A DNA stretch of 63,484 nucleotides, counting the filler, from Sluysia triapertura (lineage: Eukaryota), in the NCBI GenBank assembly GCA_046118255.1. It is 5 parts of 5 records of this genome, joined end to end, with 100 filler letters (N's around TTAATTAATTAA, not from the genome) between each part and the next. Parts side by side here need not be neighbours in the genome. Positions count along the whole stretch, not along the records: positions 26,197 to 38,493 come from JBJNIA010122416.1; positions 38,594 to 52,302 come from JBJNIA010023843.1; 3 more parts are not named here. One strand, given 5' to 3'. Under the pieces are notes generated by a model that did not search any database, was not told the origin of the DNA, and saw only the letters and a program-made list of their open reading frames with translations. A program made the translations under genes and the position numbers. Shown here piece after piece: positions 10,149 to 47,879 of this stretch (the stretch's first letter is position 1; each line of letters starts with the position of its first letter).

Positions 10149-10583
10149 TTAGTAATAAACAGTTTTTGATAAAAATAAAAACATTCCATAATAACCGAAA
10201 GATGTTTTAAAGTGTAGCGGATTGTTAAGAAATGGATGTGACTTGGAAGAGACAATGCAGATGCTAGGTGTACGAACAGACCCAAAATACAGCTTAATCT
10301 CGTCTTCATAGTGTGATGGTCGAGTTATATTATTGTTATTGATTTTAGAATTAAAAATTATAAATTTAATATTAAGAAAATTGGACTTAAGGTCCTTATA
10401 GCTATAACGATTATGTAATTCAAAATCATTAAAGAAATTATTACTATTATTGAATTTCATATTACAAATTGAAATTTTAAAATTACTTAAGAAATAATAA
10501 CAAATGACAAGATTATAATCGATATTAAAACTAAAAAGATCGTATTCATGATGAGTATTATAGTCTATAACGTGATCATACAT
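10149..10583 (-). CDS. Orphan ORF (~145 aa), possibly 5'-truncated
   Basis: Open frame unusually long for this AT content. No recognisable motif. Confidence 0.3.
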   Translation of the reverse strand: MYDHVIDYNTHHEYDLFSFNIDYNLVICYYFLSNFKISICNMKFNNSNNFFNDFELHNRYSYKDLKSNFLNIKFIIFNSKINNNNITRPSHYEDEIKLYFGSVRTPSICIVSSKSHPFLNNPLHFKTSFGYYGMFLFLSKTVYY

Positions 10584-10588
10584 CTTAG

Positions 10589-12344
10589 TCAACTCAAGTT
10601 CTGTAGAATCATAAACAAAAAATTATTATAATAACCAACAGATAAGGTCTCTGGGGCTGAGTAACCGGACGATCCGCAAATTACTTTTAAGTCTTGTTCA
10701 TTATTTACTTTAATAGCTGAACCAAAACCTGTCGTTTTAATACTATTATTAACATCCGGCAGGATATTTTCCGGTTTCAAGTCGTGATCTATAACACCTT
10801 TACCGTGTAATTTGTCAATTTGATTCATTAATTTAACTACTTCATATTCTTTTTGTTCTTCACTCATGCCTTCAAATGGATCTTTATATGGTTCTTCTAT
10901 TAGTCCAGTTACTAGATTAACATCAACTTTTACTTTAGAATCTACATCACTTGAACTAAGTACCGAACCTTTAGTATCACCTCCGGCTTTATTGGAATTT
11001 CTACTTAACATTGAGCATCGATTCAATAATGAATGACGTACTAGAAAGCCTGCGTAATTGCCAAATCCGGTATACTTGATTTCTTGATCAACTGAATTTT
11101 CACATAAAACGGAAATAAACAACGCAGCAGCCTCCGTAAGATTATCATCAGTACTTTGAAGTAATTTACACAAATTATTTCTTAAACTATTTGCTTCTTT
11201 AGGTAACTTATAAACTTCTTTCTTTAGATAAAGCAAGACTTTTAAACGAAGGTATTTACGAATGTTTCTATCACATGCTGCGGACTTTGTTAGTGTTTGC
11301 ATATTTGACGTCAGAATTTCAATATAGTTTTGATAATTAGATAACTTGTAATCCAAAGGATTAACAAACACTTTAAAACATTCCATAGATTTATCTGATA
11401 GATAAGCATTTTTCATTTGAATATCGGTATGATCAACAAGACACAATAGAAGTTTATCTGGTATATTAAGAAGCATATTAATAGCATTGCTAATAAATTC
11501 TTGAAATAATTCTCTGTTTTTCCCTAGGCACTTTATTTATTTTTATTATTAAATTTCTAAAAGTTTTTAACATGTTTTTTAATCTTGCGTCGGCTTCCTC
11601 ATCTCCTTCCAATTTATTTAAAATGCAGGTTACATTAAAGAGAAATTTTAAAATTTCAATATCGATTTTAATAATTTCAAAATTTTCTTTAATTAAAATT
11701 GTTATGTGTTCTCTAAAAATATTAGCCACACTTTCATCGATGGCACAATCACCAATAGCAGCAAAACGTAAATTCTCCTCCAGTGCAGCTAACAAAAACA
11801 ACAATCGCATTTCAAATATCTTTATGCTTGATTGATCAAAATTGTGATTATACAGACCCATTTTTGTAATACCTCCTTTAAGTGTCGTCGTTTTCGAATG
11901 ATTAGAAAAATTAGTGCCGAAATTTTAACGATATTAAATAATGCCTTTATTGCAGCTTCAACAATTAATGGATCGGATGATGAAAGTACACTGATACACC
12001 GTCTATCCTGATTGCTATATTTTTCAAAATCAGTTAAACCAATAATTATATTAATAATGCCATCATTAAATACATTCTGTTTCATATCAACCGAATTTTC
12101 CCTAGCTAGTATTCTAATTGCATTTAAAGCGTCAATGGTTTCATTACTATTTGACTTTGAAACTAAAACTGAATGGCATTTTTGGTAAACATCCTGTTAC
12201 ATAAGCTTATATATTTTACAAATTTACTTTTTTATATTCCTGACTTAAATTAAATTGAAAACATGACTCGTGCTGAAAAATAATTAAAATAATTGAATGA
12301 AAACATACCTCGTATACAAAATCACTAATACAAATTTCGGACAT
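10589..12344 (-). pseudogene. RIC8: Ric-8 (synembryn) duplicate with two frameshifts, fused at its 3' end to a Ser/Thr kinase fragment (phosphorylase kinase gamma-like)
   Basis: Ric-8 motifs ALNAIRILARE, AIKALFNIV, MRLLFLLAAL, IKYTGFGNYAGFL and VNLVTG..EGMSEEQKEYEVVKLMNQIDKL. ATG at 12344 with two mini-introns (~12273-12308, ~12194-12227). Then DHDLKPENIL..IKTTGFGSA..CGSSGYSAPETL, i.e. degenerate kinase subdomains VIb-VIII. Confidence 0.88.
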
Positions 12345-30690: not shown

Positions 30691-32232
30691 TACTGAAAGA
30701 TTTTTATGTTAAATTAAAACTTAATCTTACAAAATAAACTGAAAGTCAAGTCTACCTAATAAGCACGATTTATATCATAGTAGAAGACGTGTTATTAGGG
30801 TTTACAATAAGTTCCAAAAAAATAGTTAAATTAGTCATTTATGTAGCTCAAATTAAAAAGTATTTTAATATGGGTTAAACTAATCATTTTATAATCTAAT
30901 ATATATAAACAATTTAAAATAGCCTTTGTGTATACTTTTATTATTTTTATTTATTTTAATCATAACAAATAAATAATCTTACAAAGTTATTAATTAAAAT
31001 TTTTTATTTACACAAAAATTATAATAATGAATTTTAAACAATACTTAAGGAGTTTGTAATAATAAAAAATTTAATTAAAATATTAATCCAGCCTTTTACG
31101 GTACAGAATAAAAGGCTTTATTCGATAAAATAAAAAAGTACAATTACTAATTAATTTAATTATAAATTGTATAATGTAATAATTTTGTGAGAAATGTTTG
31201 TGACTGATAAAATAATATTTCATCAGTATTGACAATGGTGAAATGTTAGGAAACCTGGCGACGTAGATAACTTAAATATAAAATAAAATTTATGCACGTT
31301 GTAATGCCTAAGTATAATTAAAGTATATATTAAATTAATTCTCAGGAAGATACCAACTCAGATACGTTCTTGAAATCACTGAGCGACGTAGGCTTGGCAT
31401 ATAACGTATCATATGGTATTTGATTAGTTTTATCTTTATTATAAGTTGATAAATTATGTTAATAACTGAATATTAATGTAATAATGTTGATAAGATAAAG
31501 GAAATGTTTAAAACAGATTGTCGGAGACTGACGAAAATTACTGTTGAAATTTAATTGTTAAAATTGATCGGCCTATGACCGACTAAAAAGAATGAATAAT
31601 TTTATAATTATTTCCATTTTTCCAATTTTGATTACTCTACTGTCATAAAATCAGAACAAGAATAGCTGAACTAAAGAAAAAACGTGGTATCCAAAACTGC
31701 CTCAACACATTTGTGATGATTACCGTGATCGAGGACTTATTTTCTGAAATTTGATTAAACTCTACAAAAAGCAGTCTTATTGTTAATATTGGTCGCTTAT
31801 TCTTGTTTTGTTGGTTTTAATACGGACGTCAACATTTATTGTGTTATGTCATCCCTGGATTTTACAGATTCGGTGACTTATAATTATTGAATTTATATAG
31901 AGTATATTGCAAAAAAGAACAGTTGAATTTATATAGAACAGATGAGTTTACACATTTGACTGTATTGTTATAATCGATACTTTATTGTAATAATTGATAA
32001 TATATTGAGATTTATAATTTAAATTTGTAATTGATAATTTATTGTGATATTTGAGAATATATTGAGCTTTCGTACTAATTTAATTATTAAGTTATTTTTG
32101 AATAGACGCAACATTATTTTATTTTTATTTTAATGATTAACAATTTTATTTTACAAAGTGAAACGGATATGTCAAAGTGTTTTTCATCTTCGATCAGATC
32201 TAGAATTATTAAAATCGTTAGACTTCATAAAA

Positions 32233-32372
32233 TTGACCGACCGGGGATCGAACCCGGGACCCTAGCTGCGCAGTTCGAATGCTCTACCACTGAGCTATCA
32301 GCCCGTCTAACGATTTTATTTTATTATAGTCAATTTTACCTAATGGCACTTTTAGGCCTTTTTACCCCAACA
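32233..32372 (-). repeat. tRNA-containing dispersed repeat (tRNA-like part 32233-32304)
   Basis: A box TAGCTCAGTGG and B box GGTTCGATCC. The anticodon stem does not pair. Confidence 0.8.
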
Positions 32373-33835
32373 AAAATCTTATTCAAATAGTTATTAAGAG
32401 ATCCCAAATAAAGATATGAATAAATATTATTTTTATAATTTCATTATGTACCACAATAATTCAAATAATCAATAATTTCAGTATTTCATTATAATAACTA
32501 TATGTAGACCTATTCTCGGGGTTTTAAGACTGTGTTCGGGAAATTTCGCTATTAAAACAAACTACGACTACGAAATTAGAGTAGTAGTGCATCAAATGTT
32601 ACACATTTTGGTTAGTGTGTCTTATTTTTATAAAATATATAATTTATAATGTCATAATTTTACAACATTTAATATTTGGCATCATATTTTTAACAAAATA
32701 TTTATTTTAGTTGGATATTCATTCATTCATTAATTTTATTTTAATTAGGGATTCTCTGTTAGTCAGTATGCTTTCTATCGCGACGAACAAGGCATTCCAT
32801 ACGTGCCTCGAAACGATTTCAACCTTCCCAGTTTAGGTGTTCACAGTGATGGGTTAGTTTGCTCATTTATATTGCACATTATTGATTCTATTAGCTGTGT
32901 TGTGTTTCTTGTGTCCCATAATTTGAATTTTATACCTTCACTCACAAAACACAAATATAAACAGCCATCCATTAAAAGTAAAATTCATAAAATGAATGAG
33001 AAAACATATAAAAACAAATATAGGATAAATCGAGTTTGAACTACAAGATATCTACGAAAAACTGTGCCATTAATGTCTTCAATACTTCATCAATTAACGA
33101 ATTCAATGCTAACTACGAATATACTTTCAATATATATTATAACGTACAATTTGTGGAGCTGCAAACATTTTATGGCCACAAACGTAAATGAACAAGTATA
33201 AAAATTGAATAAAAGCTACAAATAATTCTTAGTTATGACAAAATATGTGTTTTTATTTTGAAATAAACAAACAGAAATGACAAAGCGAATAACTTCATAC
33301 AATTTAGACTTGGCGGCAAATTGAGTTACTGACATGGTCAAAAATTTTAAAATATCTCATCAATACCCTTATTCAAAGATGAATTAATTCGGAAAATTAT
33401 CTCAGAATAATTTACGTTTTCCTCTATTTCTAATTCAATAAGAATAAGAATTTGTTTTTTACACGGACTAGTATTGTACAACCAGCATTTAGATAACGTT
33501 TTACATTTTTATTTACATATAGCATAATATGCCATACGATTGTAGAAGTAATTAAATATAACTGTGATATAAAATTTATATTTGTGTAAAGTTAACGCAT
33601 GGTTGTAGAGTGAGCAAGACTAATTGATAAACTAATTAGTAATAAACGCCATGTTTTATTATCCCAAAATACAGTATAAATCGTGATGCATCACTGAAAT
33701 AAAATATCTGTGAAGTAGACACAGTCATGCAAAACTATTTGTTTCAACTTTGTACTTGCGTCTCTGAATTTCTATAATGACTTAATAAAGTTAAAATAAA
33801 TAATATATTGAAATAGTATTCCGTTAGTCATATAT

Positions 33836-34730
33836 GACATGCTTTATTTAACATAAGTATTACTTTGTACTGATAGTTTCTATAAATATTCAATAATAAC
33901 GGTTTTGAAATTCAAAATATAAATTAAACTTCAATTGATAGTTCATTCCATTCTATCCATGCTTTATTTGGCATAATTTGAACTTTATATTGATAGTTTG
34001 GAAATCCAAATTGTAAGTTTAATTTTGAAGTTTCTCTTTATCTGAAATTGATAGTTCGATTATATTTGATATACTTTATTTAACATAATTCATATTTTTA
34101 CTGATAGAATGATATGAGCCCTAGAAATTTGAGTGTATGATCACTATTAAAAAATGATTCAGTGCATATATAGTTTGGAAATCCAAATTATCTGAAATTG
34201 ATAGTTCATTCATATTTGACATGCTTTATTTAACATAATTCATACTTTGTACTGATATTTTGGAAATCCAAATTATAAAGTGTATCTTTATTTGAAATTG
34301 ATATTTGACATGCTTTTTTAACATAATTCATACTTTGTACTGATATTTTGGAAATCCAAATTATAAAGTGTATCTTTATTTGAAATTGATAGTTCATTTA
34401 TATTTGACATGCTTTATTTAACATAATTCATACTTTGTACTGATATTTTGGAAATCCAAATTATAAAGTATATCTTTATCTGAAATTGATATTTGTCACG
34501 CTTTATTTAACATAATTTTGGAAATCCAAATTATAAAGTATATCTTTATCTGAAATTGATAGTTCATTTATATTTGACATGCTTTATTTAACATAATTCA
34601 TACTTTAAACTGATATTTTGGAAATCCAAATTGATAGTTTCTATAAATATTCACTAATGACAACTTGGAAATCCAATCTTAGTAAAATTAATTTTAAAGT
34701 ATTTCATTATTTGAAATTGCTAATTCATTT
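33836..34730. repeat. Degenerate tandem repeat (satellite), ~90-100 bp unit, about 8 copies
   Basis: Recurring GACATGCTTTATTTAACATAATTCATACTTTGTACTGATATTTTGGAAATCCAAATTATAAAG...TGAAATTGATAGTTCATT. Confidence 0.9.
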
Positions 34731-35352: not shown

Positions 35353-35496
35353 TGTTGGGGCAAAAAGGCCTAAAGTGTCATTTGGTAAAATTGACTATAA
35401 TAAAATAAAATCGTTAGACAGGGCTGATAGCTCAGTGTTAGAGCATCGAATTGCGCAGCTAGAGGTCCCGGGTTCGATCCCCGGTCAGTCCATTTT
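35353..35496 (+). repeat. tRNA-containing dispersed repeat (72-nt pseudo-tRNA 35421-35492 plus TTTT)
   Basis: Acceptor stem GGGCTGA/TCAGTCC, D arm GCTC/GAGC, T arm with GGTTCGATCC and a T4 terminator. The anticodon stem is unpaired. Confidence 0.8.
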
Positions 35497-35869
35497 ACAA
35501 TACTGTAAACGTTTATTGAGATGGGTGAAAGTGAAAAGTGTAGAAAGAATCACAATCACAATCATACCAATGATAAAGCTATTTGTGATGAATAAAGAAA
35601 CAAGAATATGGGAAAATAATGAAGGGAAAAATAAAAATAAAAGAATATAAGAAATAAATAAAAACATTAAATACAAAATGAAAAGAAGAAGAAGGAAATG
35701 AAAATGAAAATGAAAATGAAAATGAAAATGAAAATGTGAAAGATAATATCAGTTATTGTATAATAGATTGATTATTTACAAAGACTTAATTCCTAAAAAC
35801 AAAAGATTAAAGATTAAAAGCACCGAAGGAAGAGGATAAACGAACGAGTTAATTGAGTAAAGTACCAAG

Positions 35870-38270: not shown

Positions 38271-38644
38271 GTATTAGTTAGACCGATTGAATGAAAGGTT
38301 AAAGTTTCATTTAATTATAAAGGTTCTAATATTTATCTATATTATAATGTGTAATAATAATAATAATAATAATAATAATATATTAATTTATATTGCGCTC
38401 ATATCTACCGCGAAAGGCGCTTATGGTATATCATTCACCATAGTATTTCTGAAACAGAAAAAACTTTGCTTTTTTCTTAAATATTTCATAATCNNNNNNN
38501 NNNNNNNNNNNNNNNNNNNNNNNNNNNNNNNNNNNNNTTAATTAATTAANNNNNNNNNNNNNNNNNNNNNNNNNNNNNNNNNNNNNNNNNNNNATCATTC
38601 GTGACTTAGAACTTCCGTTTGGTTGGCTCAAGGGGATTATTAAT

Positions 38645-39145
38645 CTTTCCAATAATAATCTCATAGCCTATTCGACCGACAACGCGATTTTGAGAGGAAG
38701 GCAGACTTTTATAATATGTGTAACAAAAATGGCAGCAATAATTTTAATTCCTTAAATAATAAAAATATATATGCACAATACTTACCTATACATGTGTTCA
38801 CTATTAGTCGACGAAGCTATCATAATTAAAACTATTAAAAATAATAGTCTTATTAATTAATAATCTTGAGTTTCTCCCAAAGTGAATATGTAAAATAATG
38901 TCCATAATGTATAACATATAGTAAACATAAACAATAATAATGTAACCTTACTTATTAACTTATATTCTGTCAAGGAGCTTATTTTACCTAATGAATTATT
39001 ATTTAATGTTGTAGTAAAAATGTGACAAGGTTTTGTTGTAGTACTTGAAATAATTGTACGATTATTAAGAGACTGGTAAAATTTTTCGATAATAGATTTA
39101 CTTCCAGTGTCTACCAAAGAAAGTGTTATCAACATGGGTCTATTA
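38645..39145 (-). pseudogene. Retropepsin domain 3, partly deleted or rearranged
   Basis: NRPMLITLSLVDTGSKSII, with a YEIIIGK motif at ~38650-38670. Confidence 0.55.
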
Positions 39146-39724
39146 GCATAACGCAGACCTTGTGAAATTTGTAGTGTACGGCTTTATACGGCTTGAGATA
39201 GATACAATGAATTAATATTGAATGTCGAGGAATTTTCATCATAGGATTTATTATCCAATATTGCTTGTAAAAATTTTTAAGTATAAATTTTGTTCGAAAT
39301 CGTAATGCATTTCTAGTATTTCTCATTTATTCAACATCAACTATACATTTGGAACCTGTAATTCTAATACAAAGTAGCAAAATTAAGAAAAGTAATTTTA
39401 ATACAGAGAGTGATTTTATCCTGAATGTAGTAACTGTACTGCACGTTGAAAACAAATTACATTCGGATGATCGGGCTCAATTCCGGAAGAAACTGATGTT
39501 ACGTCTGTGTTATCTGTATTATCGAATGAAGATTCGGATGTCAAGTCTGGTTTAGGAAAAACTGGTGGATTCCTATGATGTGGAGTAATGTGTGGTGCAA
39601 TAAAATCATATACTACGACTTGTTGGATTTGGTTGAAAGTCTACAGACGGAAGAACCACGAGGTAAAATTTATGAGCCTACTGTTAGTTTCATAAATCCG
39701 TCTCTGCTATGAATTACTACATCT

Positions 39725-39975
39725 TCTAAATGTTTGATTACATCTAAACCTACAATTATTTCATAATGACATTTATCCCATACCAGTATTAGAACATAAA
39801 CATTCGTATCTAAGATCGTAATTTGACATTGAAATACCCCATTTACGTCATTGGGAGTATTGTTGACACTATAGACAGTACTGGTTGATGCATCAATGCG
39901 ATTTCTAAGGTAGTCAACATATTGTAATTAACGATAGAATTACATGCGTCAGTGTCAATAATAGCTCTTATCCAT
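39725..39975 (-). pseudogene. Retropepsin domain 2
   Basis: IRAIIDTDACNSIV... then, after a frameshift, CHYEIIVGLDVIKHL. Confidence 0.75.
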
Positions 39976-40089
39976 GTTTAATTTATCTGAGCGGTTTGTG
40001 TTGCATGCTTAATTAAATTTAATTTCAGTGAAGAATTTAATATCATTACTTGTTTGTCAGTATGTGATTTATATCTATCTTTTAATATA

Positions 40090-40385
40090 ACATTGTCAAA
40101 GTCGAAAATAAAACCTTTAAGCTCTTATAATACATCTATTTCTATATCATCGGGGCAATCTCTCAACACTTAATTTTGTTTCAAATTTATTTTTGCCTAA
40201 TTCACATTGAACTTTTATTACTCCTACTATTTTTGTAGTATCTCATGTCACACCTGCGAAATTAGAAACATGGTCAACTAAATTCTTAAGTACCTCATTT
40301 ACCAAGGAGGCTGCCGCTTCTGTGTCGATTAATGATGAAATAACTCGACCATTAATTCTAATTTCAACCAATGGTCGTTTCGCAC
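40090..40385 (-). pseudogene. Retropepsin domain 1
   Basis: KRPLVEIRINGRVISSLIDTEAAASLVN...IVGVIKVQCELG (DTG changed to DTE). Confidence 0.8.
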
Positions 40386-40549
40386 CATAATAATTGTTGT
40401 TTGCACAAATAATATAAACTACATTCTTTGGTGGTGACGTTGGAGGAATTGGATATAAAAGATTTTTTTGTTTTTAGGTTCTTTATTTTCTTCAATATCT
40501 TCTATGTTTCCATCCTTGATTTCGTTATTTTGATTCATATTTGTGTTTT

Positions 40550-42440
40550 GTATAGTTTGTAATAATATATTTTATTAACCTGTGAACATTACTTTTTTTA
40601 GTGCATTTATTTGAGAATTTGCTTGGTAGTGAAGTAAATATTTAGCTAAGAAAGGAAAACAATCTATGAGTAATCTCCCATTACAGAAATTATTTGCGAA
40701 ATGATCAAACTATTACCTTAATAATAGTATAAATTCCTATTAAATCTGAAAAACCTGTCCTAAAACTAAGAAACTATCCCCCAAATGTGTTGTAGTGTAT
40801 TTTGAGCAGCTTTCTTAAAATGATCACATCCTAATAATAGTTCAAAATTAACTTGATCGTCTTTTTTCACAATTGCTTTATCTACAAAATCTATTTTAAA
40901 ACCTTAGATTGCTTTATCGGAAATAGAATTTCATGCCATGCGGCTTTTATAACATTAGTATAAATACCAGAATTAGGAATATTTTTAGCTGTCTATAATC
41001 TTAATTTACCTCTTAATTCAGTTAAACTTCTAGCGTCTTAACTTGACTTTTATGTGGTAATAAAATCCATAAATTATCACCTATCCTATTCGGGTGCCAT
41101 GATATTCGAGCAGTGCATGGTTTTTGGTTTAATTTTATCATTAGGTAATAATACTCGCGTTGCTGGTTCTAAATATGTTTGTGATTTTTCATAAGTCATT
41201 GGTAAACTCCGATTCTTGTCGTATTTGCATCTCGACTTTCTTACATTTATAGGTATATAATACTTCGCCCATTAGTCGTCTGCCAATACACCTTCTAATG
41301 GTAAAAGTGGTGCTACTTTTAGTAATAGCGATTGCTGACTTAGTTCGTAAAATATCCTTATTTAGTTGACAGTCTCTTACTATCATTGCTTGATAAACTT
41401 TTTCTAGCGACATTAGTCCCAAATGATAGTAAAAGTCAATCTTATTGTTAAACTATGTGCTTCATTTTAAATTTTTAGAGTTAACTCCATTTTTCTCTTG
41501 TGGAATTATATGTTCAGACAAATAAATACCTTGGTAATTAGTCTCTGTTACTTCCTTATCATATGTAATGATTGAATTTTTTGACATAAATATTAAACCG
41601 TCTTCTTCCTTATTTGCCATAAGAATAGTAGGAGTTTATACTTCTTTCAATCTTTTTCTTTCTAAATTTTCCTTATCTATTTGTTTCTTATTTAATTCCT
41701 CAGTCGGTAATTCATGATTATTTTGAAATATGAATCCTTATACAAGATTAAACTTAATTTATTTTAAAAATATCAAGGACACTGAAACTTATTTAATTCA
41801 TAGAATAATAGAGATTATCCTGTGTCAAAACTAGTTTGATCCATTTTACAAAATGAACGTGACATCATAGTACATTTTTCTATATAAAAACTTTCATTAA
41901 AAGATTTTAAACTGGCTACATATATTTCCTGTGCAACAACATTATGATATATTTCACCTTCGTATTCTATAGAACCTCTTTCACATGTTCCATCTAATAA
42001 TACATTTCCTGCTGTCCTAACATTATAAATAATCTTTTCGTTATCTTTTGTTCTCAACTTGTCTTCCTTATTTAAATTTATATAACCGATTTCGAATGTA
42101 TCTCTACAATTATTGGGTGATATTTTCAAAGGTTTTAAAACGTTTAATATATCAATAATCGATGAGTGATTATGATGTCCACAATACCACATTACGACTG
42201 ATCGTTTAACCGAACATTAAATTAAATTACCTTTTGGTACATATTCAGTATCTTACTATCTATTGAGTCGTAACTCCGGCCAATTTTCGTGTCGAGCAAT
42301 GAAAATTCTCTACCTATTTGAGGTCTATTACAATCAAATGCCTTAATTCCATGTGTCTTATCTATGACGAACATAGCAAGAAAAATAATTACGAATAACA
42401 TATTAGTAGAATTACCTAATCTAGGAAGTATATTATTCAA
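40550..42440 (-). pseudogene. Chuvirus-type (class III, gB-like) envelope glycoprotein
   Basis: Hydrophobic signal followed by IKAFDC..FSLLD; WYCGHHNHSS; ISPNNC; AGNVLLDGTCERG; NVVAQ; DCQLNKDIL; GEVLYTYKCKKVE; NSGIYT..HEILFP; membrane-proximal FLSF..LIGIY. Same motif order as chuvirus G. Confidence 0.85.
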
Positions 42441-45400
42441 TAGGTTATCATTTGCTAATATATTTGTGAACCTATTGAGAGTTTCATTAGAGTTTAATTT
42501 ATCTCATTCTTTAATTATATTTTTCGAACCACCTTGGTTTTCAATCCATAACTCAATTTTTTTATCTACGAAATTTATTATCTTATCTACTTTCTCCTTA
42601 GTAAGAAGTTTCACTTTATTGCATTGGAGCAATGTTAAGGCAATAATGATTTTGAGATTTTCTTTGTTTAATCCAGCATAATTTGTTTACCTATTATTAA
42701 CTTATATTGTCCCGTCTATATACTCAATTACATCCTTATCTCTATATTTTTCATCTAACTGTTGCGTTAGTTGTGTAATTGCACTTTTATAATTCTTAAT
42801 CTTAGGTAATAATATTTTATACTTATCAAAACTTATTAAACTTATCCGACAAAAGTGTGTAAATTAAAATTTTCGCATCTAATTCAATTTTATTGAAATC
42901 ATAAATAATTTTCGTTAAATCTATTAGGAGTTACTAATTGATCATTATATTCTTTTCTTGGCCCGCCTAGTCTTGAGAGTATTTGTTTCCTTATTTAACG
43001 TTTCAATATGTGAGTTGTCATTTAAATCTAGTATGTAATCAGGTTGTTCATTATCTGTATCAGTAATAACATTTTTCTTAACTTCATTAACTCGAATGGG
43101 AAAGGTAATCCGTGTCCATATTAACTTTATTCGGAGTAGAATATTGTCATGAATTCCAAGAGCGTAACCATAATCATTTAAAAACTCATCGGGCGCCAGA
43201 TTTTTATCATTAAAATATAAGTATTAGAGTCATTCATTTTAATTAACTCAATAATTTCTTTAACTGGCGTAGTAACAGTTCCATTACTACACTTATTGAA
43301 TCATTAATTAATATTTTAATATTCATTAAGGTTACTTCACTTTTCTTTAGCATTCTTCTTGCTTTAACTTTATGAGGACTCTCTTCTCTACTTAATTCAA
43401 CTAAAATAGACTTAATTTTATGGCCATCTGGAAAACTTAAATGGGTCGTCTTACATAAATTTTCTAAATTAATTTCGATGTCTTCTGCTTTTAGTCGTCC
43501 TTATTTAAACACGAAAGGAATGTATTAACTTCTTTATTTGCAGTTAATTCTAATTTGTTTGCTTTCTTCTCCTCATTGACGGATACTATTATTGGTTCCG
43601 GTTCACTTCACTTTCTATAATAACTTCGTCGCTTGCATTCGAATTACTAATTTTACTTATATTTGAATTTTCATATTCACTTATGCTTGAACTTTCATTT
43701 AGCCTGATTGTTGAATTTGTTTTGAGATATTCACTCATCATTGATTCCGCATCTGCTGTGTTATCTTTTTCCAAATTGAATTCGGTACTATAATTTAAAT
43801 CATTTTCCTCAGTTGTAATCGAATTGGTGTCGGTACTCTCATCTGATGTTAAACTCAAATTGTCACTATTTTCATCTGTTTATTATTTACTTTAACTGCA
43901 TTTTATTATTTAAGTCCTTCTCGAATTCCTTATATTTCAACTCCTTTCTTTTTAAATATTTAAAACAATACACATACATATAATTTATAAATGGATCTTC
44001 TTTTTGTCTATTATACCTATCTTCATTTTCATCATTATCGTCACCGTCTAATTTTATTATAGAGAACTCATTAATAAATACATTTTATTATATTCTGTCG
44101 CTCTCCTATAGTTTTCGTCTTCGAAATCATAATCTCTGTGTGCTCCTTCATCGTAATTATTGTAACTATTTCGAATTTTATTATAATTATAATTTATTTG
44201 TCCCTTACTCTTATTCTCACTTATTAAACCTTACTTTTCTATCTGAGCTTGTCCCTCTCGAATAATCTGGTATTTTAGTAAGCTTTTTGATTAAAAGTGT
44301 CAGCTCTTAACTTCCTACAATTTCTAGCATAGTGACCTTGTTTACCACAGTTACTACATATTACATTCCCTTCTACGTTTGTCTAAGCCTTATAGTTATT
44401 ATAACTAAACTTCGCAGGATTCTTATTTCTAGTGCTACTACTATTATTTAGTCGATCACAATATTCACCAGCCGAATTTGGCACCGCGATACAAGTCTTT
44501 GTTCGTACCCAATAAAGCTTGAGGTTTTATTATAACTTTTAAAACCGAAATTATTTTTATCTTTAAAAGTCTGAAAGTTATTTTTGTTACATCTTTGAAA
44601 ATTATTAATTACTTTAATTCAATATTTATTGAATTAGTTTAAAATGAGATTTTCTTATGCAAGTACGCCATAAATCAAATATAAGTTTTCAAAAATTCCC
44701 GTATTTAATATCAATAATTATTCACCCCAAAAATTAAACTCTTTGAAATCAAATCAAAAATGACACAATAATTTACTATGAAACAAAAAATCAAAATATA
44801 ATTTATTATTATTAAAAATCTCTACTAAACAATATTCAAACTGGCTAATAATAATGTTTTTAATAATTTAATGACACTACAATATAACTAAAGAAACCAG
44901 GATTGACACAACAGACACTAAAAATATCAATATCGAGAAAGTAAAGAATAATGATGCTGCCCAAATATTTCTAGACAGCTTAACTAAACGTAATTACAAT
45001 TAAATATTATAACAAAAACTTGAGCAGAGATTCTTCCTAAAATTTAACAGTAATGTATAAATAAACTAATATTTGAAAAGTAAATTGTGTAGTGTCTCTC
45101 ACAAAACTAATTTTAAAATCCCAAAAAATAAAATACCAGATGATATTAAAATCCATTTAAAACAAATTTAATATTTTAAAACAAATTGCAAAGGGAGTCT
45201 CTCACCAAATGATTTTAAAATTCCTCAAAAACAGATGAAATAATAATGATAATAATAATCGGAATATTATAAAAATATTATAACGATATTAAAATAATAA
45301 ATTAGAATAATAAAATAATACAATATTCCTACCAAGAGCATGGATATTCTTAATTCTGCAAATCTTCTTGTGTCTTGTGTTTGTGTGATTGTGTTGTAAA

Positions 45401-47879
45401 AATTTAGAAATTATTATTTTATACTCTCTCATCATCCAATCAATTTTCATTCTCACAACCAAACACTCTCTCACACAAATCATCCAAACCTCTTTGAGAA
45501 TCAAACCAACAATAACAAATTTGACAATTAAATGGTGCGATCTGTTAAACTTCATTAGCTACAAAACTCAGAAATCTGATTTATTATCAACTATCATTTC
45601 CTTTTACTCTACCAAATCTATTTTTACTTAAATTACTTCTCGCATTAAAATAACAATCAGCAATACTATTAACATACATAAAAATAATGAATTTAGTTTC
45701 ACTTTCTATAATTTAATTAATTTTCTATTTTTCACACCCAATTTTCTAATGAAAAATGTTTTAAGGTTCTTATTGTTCTTAAATATAACAATAAACTAAA
45801 TGGAATTTCTTTTAACACCTCTAATTTCATTAAGTCTATTTCATAACTCTCTTTCATATCTTTTTTTATTTTTTCTTTTTATATTATTAAATCAAATATT
45901 AATGAAAATATACATCATCACAAACAATAACATGAGCTTCCTCGTCATCATTATTATCTCCGCAAGTAACATCACCAAATTCATCAACGCGGTCACCAAG
46001 TCAACAAAATGAAATCGAAGATAGAGTAGACAAAAGAAATAAATCCGAAAAATCACAACGGAATAATAAATCAAAGAAACATTTCTCTTTAATTGGCCAA
46101 GATTTTCCATTTCTTGGACCAGAAAGTAGTCATGAATTTGAAGATTCTGATGAAAAAGGGAAATAAAGTTTTGACAAGTCAAAGAATGAGAATTGAGATA
46201 GATATTTGTTTATAATTTTTATTTTATTATTATTATTATCAGTATTTTTAAGTAAACATTATTATTATCATTATTATCATAATTATTTTTACTATTTTTA
46301 ATTACGCTAACTGTCAATTTAGACAGTTTTTAATTATGTCTAGTTTTATTTGGTGTCATCAATTGACAACCTTGTCTTTGATAAAATTTACATTGAAATC
46401 TAAATAGCTACAAGACACTTGCTTTTATTGGCTATTAAAATTTACGTGATAATTTTATGTAATTTTTAATCGGCCACATAAAGTTGGAAAAATTAATTTG
46501 CATTTCATGTTTTTAACCACAACAATTTTAACGCAAATACTAATTAAATCTTAATCGAAAATAAATAAACGACCAAAAAAAAACAAATTTTCCAAGTTAT
46601 GTTTGATTTCAAATCTTATTATCATGTGGCTTCTAGCTCCTAAAAGTTTCAAAACAAATCCTAATACATTGACATATCTTTTACATGTTAGTTACCCGAT
46701 TCATGATCAAGTGGTATAATGCGATCAATAACATCATCAATTTCATCATGTATAACTTTTAAACGAATCTCACCAAATGAATTTGTAAAGTACGATTCAT
46801 TTAATGTATACGATTATATTCGAATATAAACATCATCGTCATCATCACTGACGTCACAACAAAACAAAACAAATATTATTATTATCTTTGAAAATTAATA
46901 TTTAATTGGATAATATTTTTTACTAGTTTACCCAAGAAAAATATTTTTATAAAAGAAGTCTTTTTTCTGCAGAAAATATCTTGTGCTATATCTTAAATAA
47001 ATATTTGTTTAAGCTTCATTACATTAGAAAGTGGGCGTCTAATCATAAACTATTATTAATTTTTGGGAGTTAACGAGTCGACTAATTTAAACAATTATTT
47101 ATAAATAATTAAAAATTAAAATAAAATTTTTCTGTAGTACATCGTTATAAATATAAATTGTAAACAGAAAACTACACTAAGACACTTGTACAAATTAACA
47201 CATTCACGGACACAAAAAATGTTGGGTTCGTGATGTGACACATTGATTTCTGATTGATTAATATCGGTTTTACTTTAGTAATGCTAATTATAATGTTTTT
47301 AGTATTTGAATGTGATTATCTGTACTAATTAGTGTGTAACTATAACCGTCCTTCCATTTTATGTGATAATAACATGACAATGACCTTTTTATTCAAAATT
47401 TAAATCATTTTTACACATGAAAAATCACAATTCATAACATTAAAATTATGTTTACATCGAAACCATTTCACATTTAATTTAAAACATTTCAAGTTCACAA
47501 TTATACAACATTCACAACATTTATATCATTGAAAAACTTTAAACTTTCATTTCAATATCAATTTTAAAATATTACATTTAAAATGGAATTTCTTTAACAT
47601 CCTCAATTTCATTCTTTTATCATTTCCAGTTAACATTTTTAACTATGTTGTTATATATTTTTAATAATACTTACCTACAATGCAAATGAATTTATATAAG
47701 TCACAAAAACAGAAAATTATGTATTTTTTTAGAAAGAAGACGAAAACTTTTAAAGAAAGATCAGAATTTAAAGAATGTATATGTTTGATGAATTTTTCTT
47801 ATATTATTTTTATTACTATTTTCATTTTTATTATTATAATTATTTTCATTTTTGTTATTGTTTAGTTTACGCCATTTTA

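Follow-up and report, generated by a model that had tools for sequence, protein, structure and literature searches.

A dead, truncated copy of a probable GAG-ENV-POL retroelement in Sluysia triapertura, with a gB-type glycoprotein between a Gag knuckle and diverged retropepsins

A continuous gag-env-pro-pol ORF is reportedly carried by the nematode NERVs, as Sacco et al. are said to have described in 2022. According to the accessible text of Chary & Hayashi 2026 (PMC13524379), which also places Env ahead of pol in the NERVs, GAG-ENV-POL errantiviruses with an HSV/gB-type env occur in Platyhelminthes, Nematoda and Bryozoa; in its main text the word 'protease' appears once and tandem proteases are not discussed. 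In the planarian Burro elements env lies in frame between gag and pol (Arkhipova & Yushenova 2019, PMC6431247, accessible sections). The same sections describe Burro and GYPSM1 as giant gypsy-like planarian elements of more than 30 kb with long LTRs and report decayed fragments in a third planarian. Dezordi et al. 2020 (PMC7642597, accessible sections) report a chuvirus glycoprotein in Anakin, a BEL/Pao element of mosquitoes. The position of env between gag and pol, which a first-pass annotation of the present locus had implied to be novel, is thus already published for Burro (PMC6431247) and the GAG-ENV-POL errantiviruses (PMC13524379), and there is nothing new in the layout.

The window analysed here, a stretch of 63,484 nucleotides joined from five parts of assembly GCA_046118255.1, contains what is very probably a dead and truncated copy of a likely flatworm Ty3/gypsy retroelement of the Burro-like or GAG-ENV-POL kind, with a gB-type Env preceded by the Gag knuckle and followed by two or more protease domains (Table 1). 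Pfam and homologue profiles gave the minus-strand order CCHC knuckle, linker, internal signal segment, glycoprotein and two diverged retropepsins, followed by a possible third. All the parts named in the first-pass annotation were found on this one strand in the sequence it gave, with zf-CCHC, PF24664 and RVP as Pfam matches, Gag being represented by the knuckle only and Pol by the proteases only. The host looks like a flatworm, as had been presumed.

Table 1. Features of the element and the gap that truncates it (positions along the window)
Feature	Position	Strand	Basis
Gap (N run) truncating the element	38494..38593	none	N runs
Possible retropepsin 3, weak, near 39120	38950..39150	-	Asp-Thr-Gly motif
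Retropepsin 2, two frames, triad degenerate	39721..39992	-	Homologue protease profile iE 3.9e-5 and 5.6e-9
Retropepsin 1, catalytic triad degenerate	40165..40377	-	Pfam RVP E 4.4e-4; homologue protease profile iE 5.6e-6
Cytoplasmic tail of Env / spacer ahead of the proteases, hydrophobic-Tyr-Pro motif at 40458-40450	40380..40619	-	Motif in homologues
Env of class III (Monjiviricetes/gB-type): ectodomain plus membrane region at the C-terminus, with stops and frameshifts	40620..42347	-	PF24664, tblastn, hhalign
Internal hydrophobic signal segment	42348..42413	-	Hydropathy and homologue profile
Candidate Bcl-2-like domain, in the frame of and directly before the signal segment	42513..42815	-	Homologue-segment profile
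Candidate ubiquitin-like (Ubl) domain, two frames, weak	43110..43330	-	By eye
Acidic, Asn/Ser-rich linker after the knuckle	43592..44100	-	Read from translations
Gag nucleocapsid remnant, one CX2CX4HX4C knuckle (44358-44317)	44308..44499	-	Pfam zf-CCHC, tblastn

The reading frame changes at least six times across the glycoprotein and its tail and is interrupted there by about 18 stops, so that the copy lacks the uninterrupted ORF of the elements listed as intact in PMC13524379 (accessible text). These broken ORFs mark decay and not a separate family, and the potential infectivity that had been suggested does not apply to such a fossil. The gap ends the element ahead of any RT, and the 3' end is lost there. 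No RT, integrase, LTR or capsid could be assigned to the copy: Pfam, homologue profiles and local tblastn detected no capsid domain upstream of about 44500, and the window holds no LTR repeat pair and no convincing PBS. Membership in Ty3/gypsy is predicted from homologues about 30% identical in Env. Other retroelement scraps occur in the window, namely a gag piece at 27233-26970, an RT start at 35243-35121 and an RT at 36899-36426; the latter, past the gap, we take from its motifs to be of the non-LTR type and have kept apart from the element.

Within the signal segment, positions 42413-42360 have a mean hydropathy of 2.06, and the signal together with the first Env residues (42407-42288) matched a profile of nine homologue N-termini with an iE of 7.8e-11 (best reversed control, 0.26), which bears out the hydrophobic segment of the first-pass annotation. 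Four collinear single-frame pieces matched PF24664 (Monjiviricetes_fusion) at profile positions 72-215, 244-357, 330-398 and 399-564 of 653, with E-values of 6.6e-22, 0.005, 1.4e-5 and 5.2e-8, respectively, and homologue profiles recognized the C-terminal membrane region at 40888-40682 (iE 5e-10). The glycoprotein, earlier called essentially full-length, is near-complete. It gave collinear tblastn matches with the long homologues and 99.4% in hhalign against the homologue alignment. The lack of any profile match to class III fusogens had been set as grounds for rejection; PF24664 provides such a match, and a structural model of a homologue matches gB. This model is that of homologue P0015, not of the window protein (mean pLDDT 59.9); herpesvirus gB made up all 40 Foldseek matches listed (best E 7e-11), with TM values to gB of only 0.13-0.26. 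In an Env tree of 21 rows, from which seven of the 27 phmmer matches described below were left out as short or repeat-like, the window fell in no strongly supported group. Word-indexed protein searches with an Env piece yielded 0/99 and 0/5 candidates, viral contigs 0/12, and the ESM Atlas no usable match; PDB sequence searches returned PPR-repeat artefacts or nothing relevant, and NCBIfam no match for nine pieces. Two metagenome contigs with 25-residue matches were dropped, that on L001 being a shadow-frame chance match within bacterial genes and L002 having the same ORF layout.

At the other end of the element, the knuckle matched Pfam zf-CCHC with an E-value of 8.7e-6, and the Gag remnant matched homologue Gag C-termini in a local tblastn search (E 5e-4 to 7e-4). 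Some 1.9 kb separate the knuckle from the signal. The first-pass annotation had put here about 1.8 kb of coding-like, unknown sequence; the linker is indeed present, and it probably, if on weak support, holds Burro's Bcl-2-like domain. The profile used, built from three homologue segments that each match Pfam Bcl-2 below the cut-off (E 2e-5 to 5e-3), aligns over positions 21-118 of 120 with an E of 0.89 window-wide and was equalled in 4/2000 local shuffles. The hhalign probability of this piece is only 1.8%, and against the PDB the profile found Bcl-xL at E 0.11 or worse, ranking under designed helical proteins. In a local profile test the two halves of the Ubl candidate gave 20/2000 and 436/2000 shuffles, with no significant match window-wide, in Pfam or in the PDB. 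The acidic linker has no Pfam family match; acidic stretches occupy the corresponding place in homologues P0012, P0035 and P0038. Pfam matches to MATH, BIR or ankyrin were absent from the minus-strand frames of 38594-45600.

The architecture of intact relatives was read from a phmmer search of 1.84 billion proteins, which gave 27 matches; three of these (P0023, P0032 and P0037), with many short stretches, were treated as repeat artefacts. The Pfam scan covered 16 proteins, 14 phmmer matches and two cluster members, the other 13 of the 27 matches lying outside it. One or more proteases follow Env in the same ORF in seven of the 16, and in three the ORF continues to RT-RNaseH-IN in the order PR-RT-RH-IN. 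A knuckle precedes Env in four of nine homologues checked, and in P0012 a single ORF runs from the knuckle through Env, protease, RT and RNase H to the integrase. Natural intact homologues thus have one ORF with the order knuckle-X-signal-Env-protease(s)-RT-RNaseH-IN, the layout that had been proposed for a Gag-X-Env-PR ancestor, possibly one polyprotein with an internal signal. For the lineage of the window itself the one-ORF state is not directly demonstrable because of the frameshifts.

That the knuckle and proteases derive from other elements than the glycoprotein, itself from one element or a viral insertion, with the pieces nested or in tandem, is very improbable. Separate retroelement scraps do litter the window and the linker homology is weak, but the parts are spaced as in the intact homologues that have a single ORF, and the motif ahead of the proteases is retained. 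From the Env anchor to the first protease there are 630 codons in the window versus 635-863 residues in seven homologues, too short a distance to accommodate an inserted element. The spacer between Env tail and protease is bridged by a contig of depth 2398 that matches on both its sides, and in further contigs Env is linked, over deletions, with protease 1 or with protease 2. An LTR at this junction, named beforehand as evidence against a single element, did not appear: there is no LTR-like repeat at 40350-40650, and no stretch of the spacer longer than 18 nt recurs in the rest of the window. Matching spacing, single ORFs in homologues and the junction-spanning contig therefore make one element the most likely origin. 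Of the 12 small-gap contig rows listed, 11 fall within the stretch from the knuckle to the C-terminus of Env and have a uniform depth of 1,746-2,268, compared with 8-24 for the eight listed pieces; the uniform depth suggests one high-copy family, contig depth not being copy number and the contigs coming from one read run, perhaps the assembly's own source.

Within a single element, Gag-linker, Env and Pol might still have been separate ORFs, or joined by programmed frameshift or readthrough, which we consider unlikely. The frame changes between parts of the window copy would fit this, as would homologue ORFs P0013, P0018 and P0039, which start just upstream of Env without Gag. Against it, frame changes are no rarer inside Env itself, the Bcl-2-like piece, the signal and the Env start share one frame (P0014 match, 42596-42285), and Env is fused to protease in seven homologues and to the knuckle in four. 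The least probable reading, with hardly any weight, is an Anakin-like BEL/Pao element with a chuvirus glycoprotein. Peptidase_A17 and DUF1758/1759 are Pfam markers of the BEL/Pao type; they were absent from the window frames and from the 16 homologous proteins, and the homologue pol parts instead gave RVT_1, RT_RNaseH, Integrase_H2C2 and rve. The window's own RT is missing and Anakin has a glycoprotein of the same family (PMC7642597, accessible sections), but by eye the end of Env domain II is closer to the Schmidtea rows than to the mosquito BEL or insect rows in the available alignment.

Returning to the single Gag-Env-Pol element, the retropepsin earlier placed about 150 bp after the glycoprotein is present; its start lies about 250 nt past the Env membrane region, and a second one follows. 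The N-half of retropepsin 2 is similar to retropepsin 1 (0/1000 shuffles), with no similarity at the DNA level. The possible third domain had an iE of 3.3 window-wide and 10/2000 local shuffles. Further downstream, 39190-38950 as a dUTPase-like spacer and 38740-38596 as a pre-RT linker failed the shuffle test (669/2000 and 891/2000), and a profile of three homologue spacers found no dUTPase-like domain at 39190-38594; it may sit past the gap. Six homologues have 1, 2, 3, 3, 4 and 7 protease domains per ORF, with 19-47% mutual identity in the three compared; the retropepsins of these arrays appear diverged and mostly catalytically intact. A hydrophobic-Tyr-Pro motif lies 32-56 residues before the catalytic Asp of the first protease in 7/7 homologues, and about 43 codons before it in the window. 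Neither the multiple proteases (1-7 per ORF) nor this motif was found for such elements in the literature searched, most subscription papers, figure supplements and RepBase entries being outside its coverage.

Retropepsins are homodimers made from one gene. An ORF that keeps as many as seven diverged protease domains after a membrane anchor therefore poses a testable question, namely how an ER-crossing Gag-Env-Pol polyprotein is processed. In the intact ancestor, presumably translated as one polyprotein, the internal signal segment would thread Env into the ER while Gag and the Ubl/Bcl-2-like linker stayed cytosolic, and signal peptidase would cut to free Env at its N-terminus. By way of the C-terminal membrane region the chain would re-enter the cytosol, and the protease(s)-RT-RNaseH-IN part would therefore initially be tethered to the Env tail. 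The element's own retropepsins might then release the Pol part, with the conserved hydrophobic-Tyr-Pro motif as the likeliest point of cleavage, and Env could mediate fusion of particles with neighbouring cells. More tentatively, and with the odds rather against it, Env-in-middle elements may have repeatedly duplicated the protease into arrays acting as tethered intramolecular or specialized dimers that cut the membrane-spanning polyprotein and free Pol from the Env tail at hydrophobic-Tyr-Pro, a motif that may alternatively serve as a budding signal of the YPxL type. If true, this would amount to a mode of polyprotein processing not yet described in LTR elements. The arrays as such may interest retroelement specialists.

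Compared with known systems (each in the accessible parts of the papers), the locus resembles Anakin as an LTR element with a captured glycoprotein of the same family, but Anakin has a BEL/Pao backbone and resides in mosquitoes, whereas no BEL/Pao marker occurs in the window or its homologues (PMC7642597). The nematode NERVs belong to another host phylum, and their Env rows are by eye unlike that of the window (PMC13524379). With Smed_errantivirus_1-6 it shares gene order, gB-type Env and a probable flatworm host; Env domain I of Smed_errantivirus_1 is identical at 40/133 residues in an ungapped hand count (~30%), with 5/6 cysteines kept, but the Smed members are intact with RT and IN, four of six being multi-copy, whereas the window copy is broken (PMC13524379). 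Burro proceeds in frame from a CCHC-knuckle Gag through ubiquitin/SUMO-like (Ubl) and then BCL2-like parts to a mononegavirus-like fusion glycoprotein and protease (PMC6431247). The window has a CCHC knuckle, a fusion glycoprotein and proteases in this order, with weak candidates for the Ubl and BCL2-like parts between knuckle and glycoprotein. The window differs from Burro in its linker of only ~1.9 kb without a MATH, BIR or ankyrin match, in an undetected dUTPase-like domain (between protease and RT in Burro), in two or three proteases where the accessible text of PMC6431247 names one, and in being dead and truncated. The locus extends the published flatworm lineage to one more genome, which seems to harbour a related family in high copy number.

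Six-frame translation revealed a decayed stretch of coding sequence on the minus strand. Pfam scans of its single reading frames, with stops written as X, returned a zinc knuckle (E 8.7e-6), PF24664 Monjiviricetes_fusion as four collinear pieces that together take in positions 72-564 of the 653 in the profile (best E 6.6e-22) and, at E 4.4e-4, a retroviral aspartyl protease. None of the three plus-strand frames gave a Pfam family, and no capsid was found in a search upstream of the knuckle. With a hydrophobic segment preceding the glycoprotein, these matches confirm that the knuckle, signal, glycoprotein and retropepsin described in the first-pass annotation are real and were correctly read. 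Expression of this copy is impossible, given at least six frame changes and about 18 stops across the glycoprotein and tail.

Features of the element and of the surrounding sequence
Feature	Position	Strand	Evidence or remark
Decayed coding region	~44500 to scaffold gap 38494-38593	-	six-frame translation
Possible Ubl	43330-43110		seen by eye only
Probable Bcl-2-like domain	42815-42513		homologue profile
Hydrophobic segment	42413-42360		upstream of glycoprotein
Protease 1	40377-40165	-	homologue protease profile iE 5.6e-6
Protease 2	39992-39721	-	homologue protease profile iE 3.9e-5 and 5.6e-9
Weak third protease candidate			profile iE 3.3; 10/2000 local shuffles
CBP/p300 histone acetyltransferase exons	56363-62728	+	best match a flatworm protein
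Very abundant repeat upstream of element	45188-45815		summed contig depth 4e5 to 1.3e6
Decayed RT beyond scaffold gap, separate from element	36899-36426	-	Pfam RVT_1 E 1.1e-9; presumably non-LTR type, by its motifs
Isolated gypsy-type RT start beyond scaffold gap, not attributable to element	35243-35121	-	iE 9e-5
tRNA-like repeat, copy 1	35353-35497	+	92.5% identical to copy 2
tRNA-like repeat, copy 2	32228-32372	-
tRNA-like repeat, partial copy	21803-21848
Degenerate tandem repeat	33828-34730		units ~90-190 nt
Isolated gypsy-type Gag N-terminal fragment	26970-27233	-
Overlapping ORFs	10149-12196	-	resemblance, by eye, to Ric-8-like protein leading into kinase-like fragment

A stop-free 133-residue piece of the Env, searched with phmmer against 1.84 billion proteins, gave 27 matches at 23-36% identity, 14 of which were scanned with Pfam together with two cluster members. 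PF24664 was present in 15 of these 16 proteins; one or more proteases followed Env within the same ORF in seven, and RT, RNase H and integrase lay further along it in three. A CCHC knuckle preceded Env in four of the nine homologues checked. The complete series, knuckle through integrase, is found within the 2627 residues of the homologue P0012, whose source label, a bacterial MAG, would reflect contamination. By tblastn the homologues aligned collinearly along the window from 42596 to 40778. For the predicted model of another homologue, P0015 (mean pLDDT 59.9), every listed Foldseek row was herpesvirus gB (best E 7e-11), with TM values of 0.13-0.26, so that the agreement concerns local domains only; together with the PF24664 match, this bears out the proposed relation of the glycoprotein to gB-type fusogens. 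A further homologue, P0031 (370 aa), in which mitochondrial ribosomal L47 is fused to an Env N-terminus, may be a chimeric gene call.

For Burro elements the published order is Ubl, BCL2, env, protease (PMC6431247). Immediately upstream of the signal, three homologues showed weak Pfam Bcl-2 matches that fall short of the cut-off (E 2e-5 to 5e-3), and a profile built from them aligned nearly full length to a linker segment in frame with the signal. Its score there, for a segment first picked by eye, was reached by 4 of 2000 local shuffles, with E 0.89 window-wide and 1.8% in hhalign.

The first-pass annotation had named an LTR or target-site duplication at the Env/protease junction as the mark of separate nested or tandem elements. 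No LTR-like repeat was seen there, and no repeat longer than 18 nt joins 40350-40650 to the remainder of the window. From the first conserved cysteine of Env to the first protease Asp there are 630 codons in the window, versus 635-863 residues in seven homologues. In all seven (six clusters) a hydrophobic-Tyr-Pro motif lies 32-56 residues before this Asp; the window has one at a distance of about 43 codons. Of 13 other protease motifs, 2 are preceded by it, and it turns up in 36 of the 492 background windows, all counts that are not independent because the homologues share ancestry. Contigs from the single listed run cover this entire stretch; one of depth 2398 flanks the Env-tail spacer on both sides, and others connect Env with protease 1 or 2 across deletions. 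Among the matches listed, 11 of 12 small-gap rows fell in the interval from the knuckle to the C-terminus of Env, with depths of 1,746-2,268 versus 8-24 for the eight listed pieces. These joins and depths suggest one high-copy family, bearing in mind that depth cannot be read as copy number and that the run is possibly the assembly's own source.

The protease profile was built from 13 homologue domains (best reversed control 6.9). Proteases 1 and 2 are similar as protein and not as DNA; their duplication is therefore old. Homologues carried 1, 2, 3, 3, 4 and 7 domains, plus at least one in a truncated protein, as counted with a profile made from many of these same domains; identities inside one element were 19-47% in the three elements compared. 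Two to seven retropepsins per ORF occur in P0039 (4844 aa), P0035, P0014, P0018 and P0013. In P0039 five of these domains separate Env from RT and two more follow the integrase, as does one in P0018.

An intact ancestor would have made one polyprotein, its internal signal directing Env into the ER and the Env membrane region bringing the chain back to the cytosol; the tethered proteases would free Pol, with the Tyr-Pro site as the most likely point of cleavage. Retroviral proteases classically cut at aromatic-Pro bonds, and YPxL is recognised as a budding motif. Because Leu stands two places after the Pro in only three of seven homologues, we favour a cleavage site over a budding motif. Env-mediated cell-to-cell spread is a published hypothesis and, for most such elements, still a hypothesis.

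The best of 11 matches to the CBP/p300 exon (two of them named) was the monogenean flatworm Protopolystoma, at 62%. An Env-piece tree placed the window, without strong support, among homologues of the polyprotein type and away from two stand-alone glycoproteins. Multiple-protease arrays, in the literature searched (mostly without subscription journals), and the conserved pre-protease motif are the aspects for which we found no description in print. The placement of Env between Gag and Pol is already known: Chary & Hayashi 2026 (PMC13524379) gives gB-type Env in GAG-ENV-POL order for Nematoda, Bryozoa and Platyhelminthes, with nine flatworm elements listed. Its Smed_errantivirus_1 row is identical to the window's 133-residue piece at 40 of 133 positions (ungapped, counted by hand). 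The element in the window is likely a new, though decayed, member of the Burro-like GAG-ENV-POL elements of flatworms.
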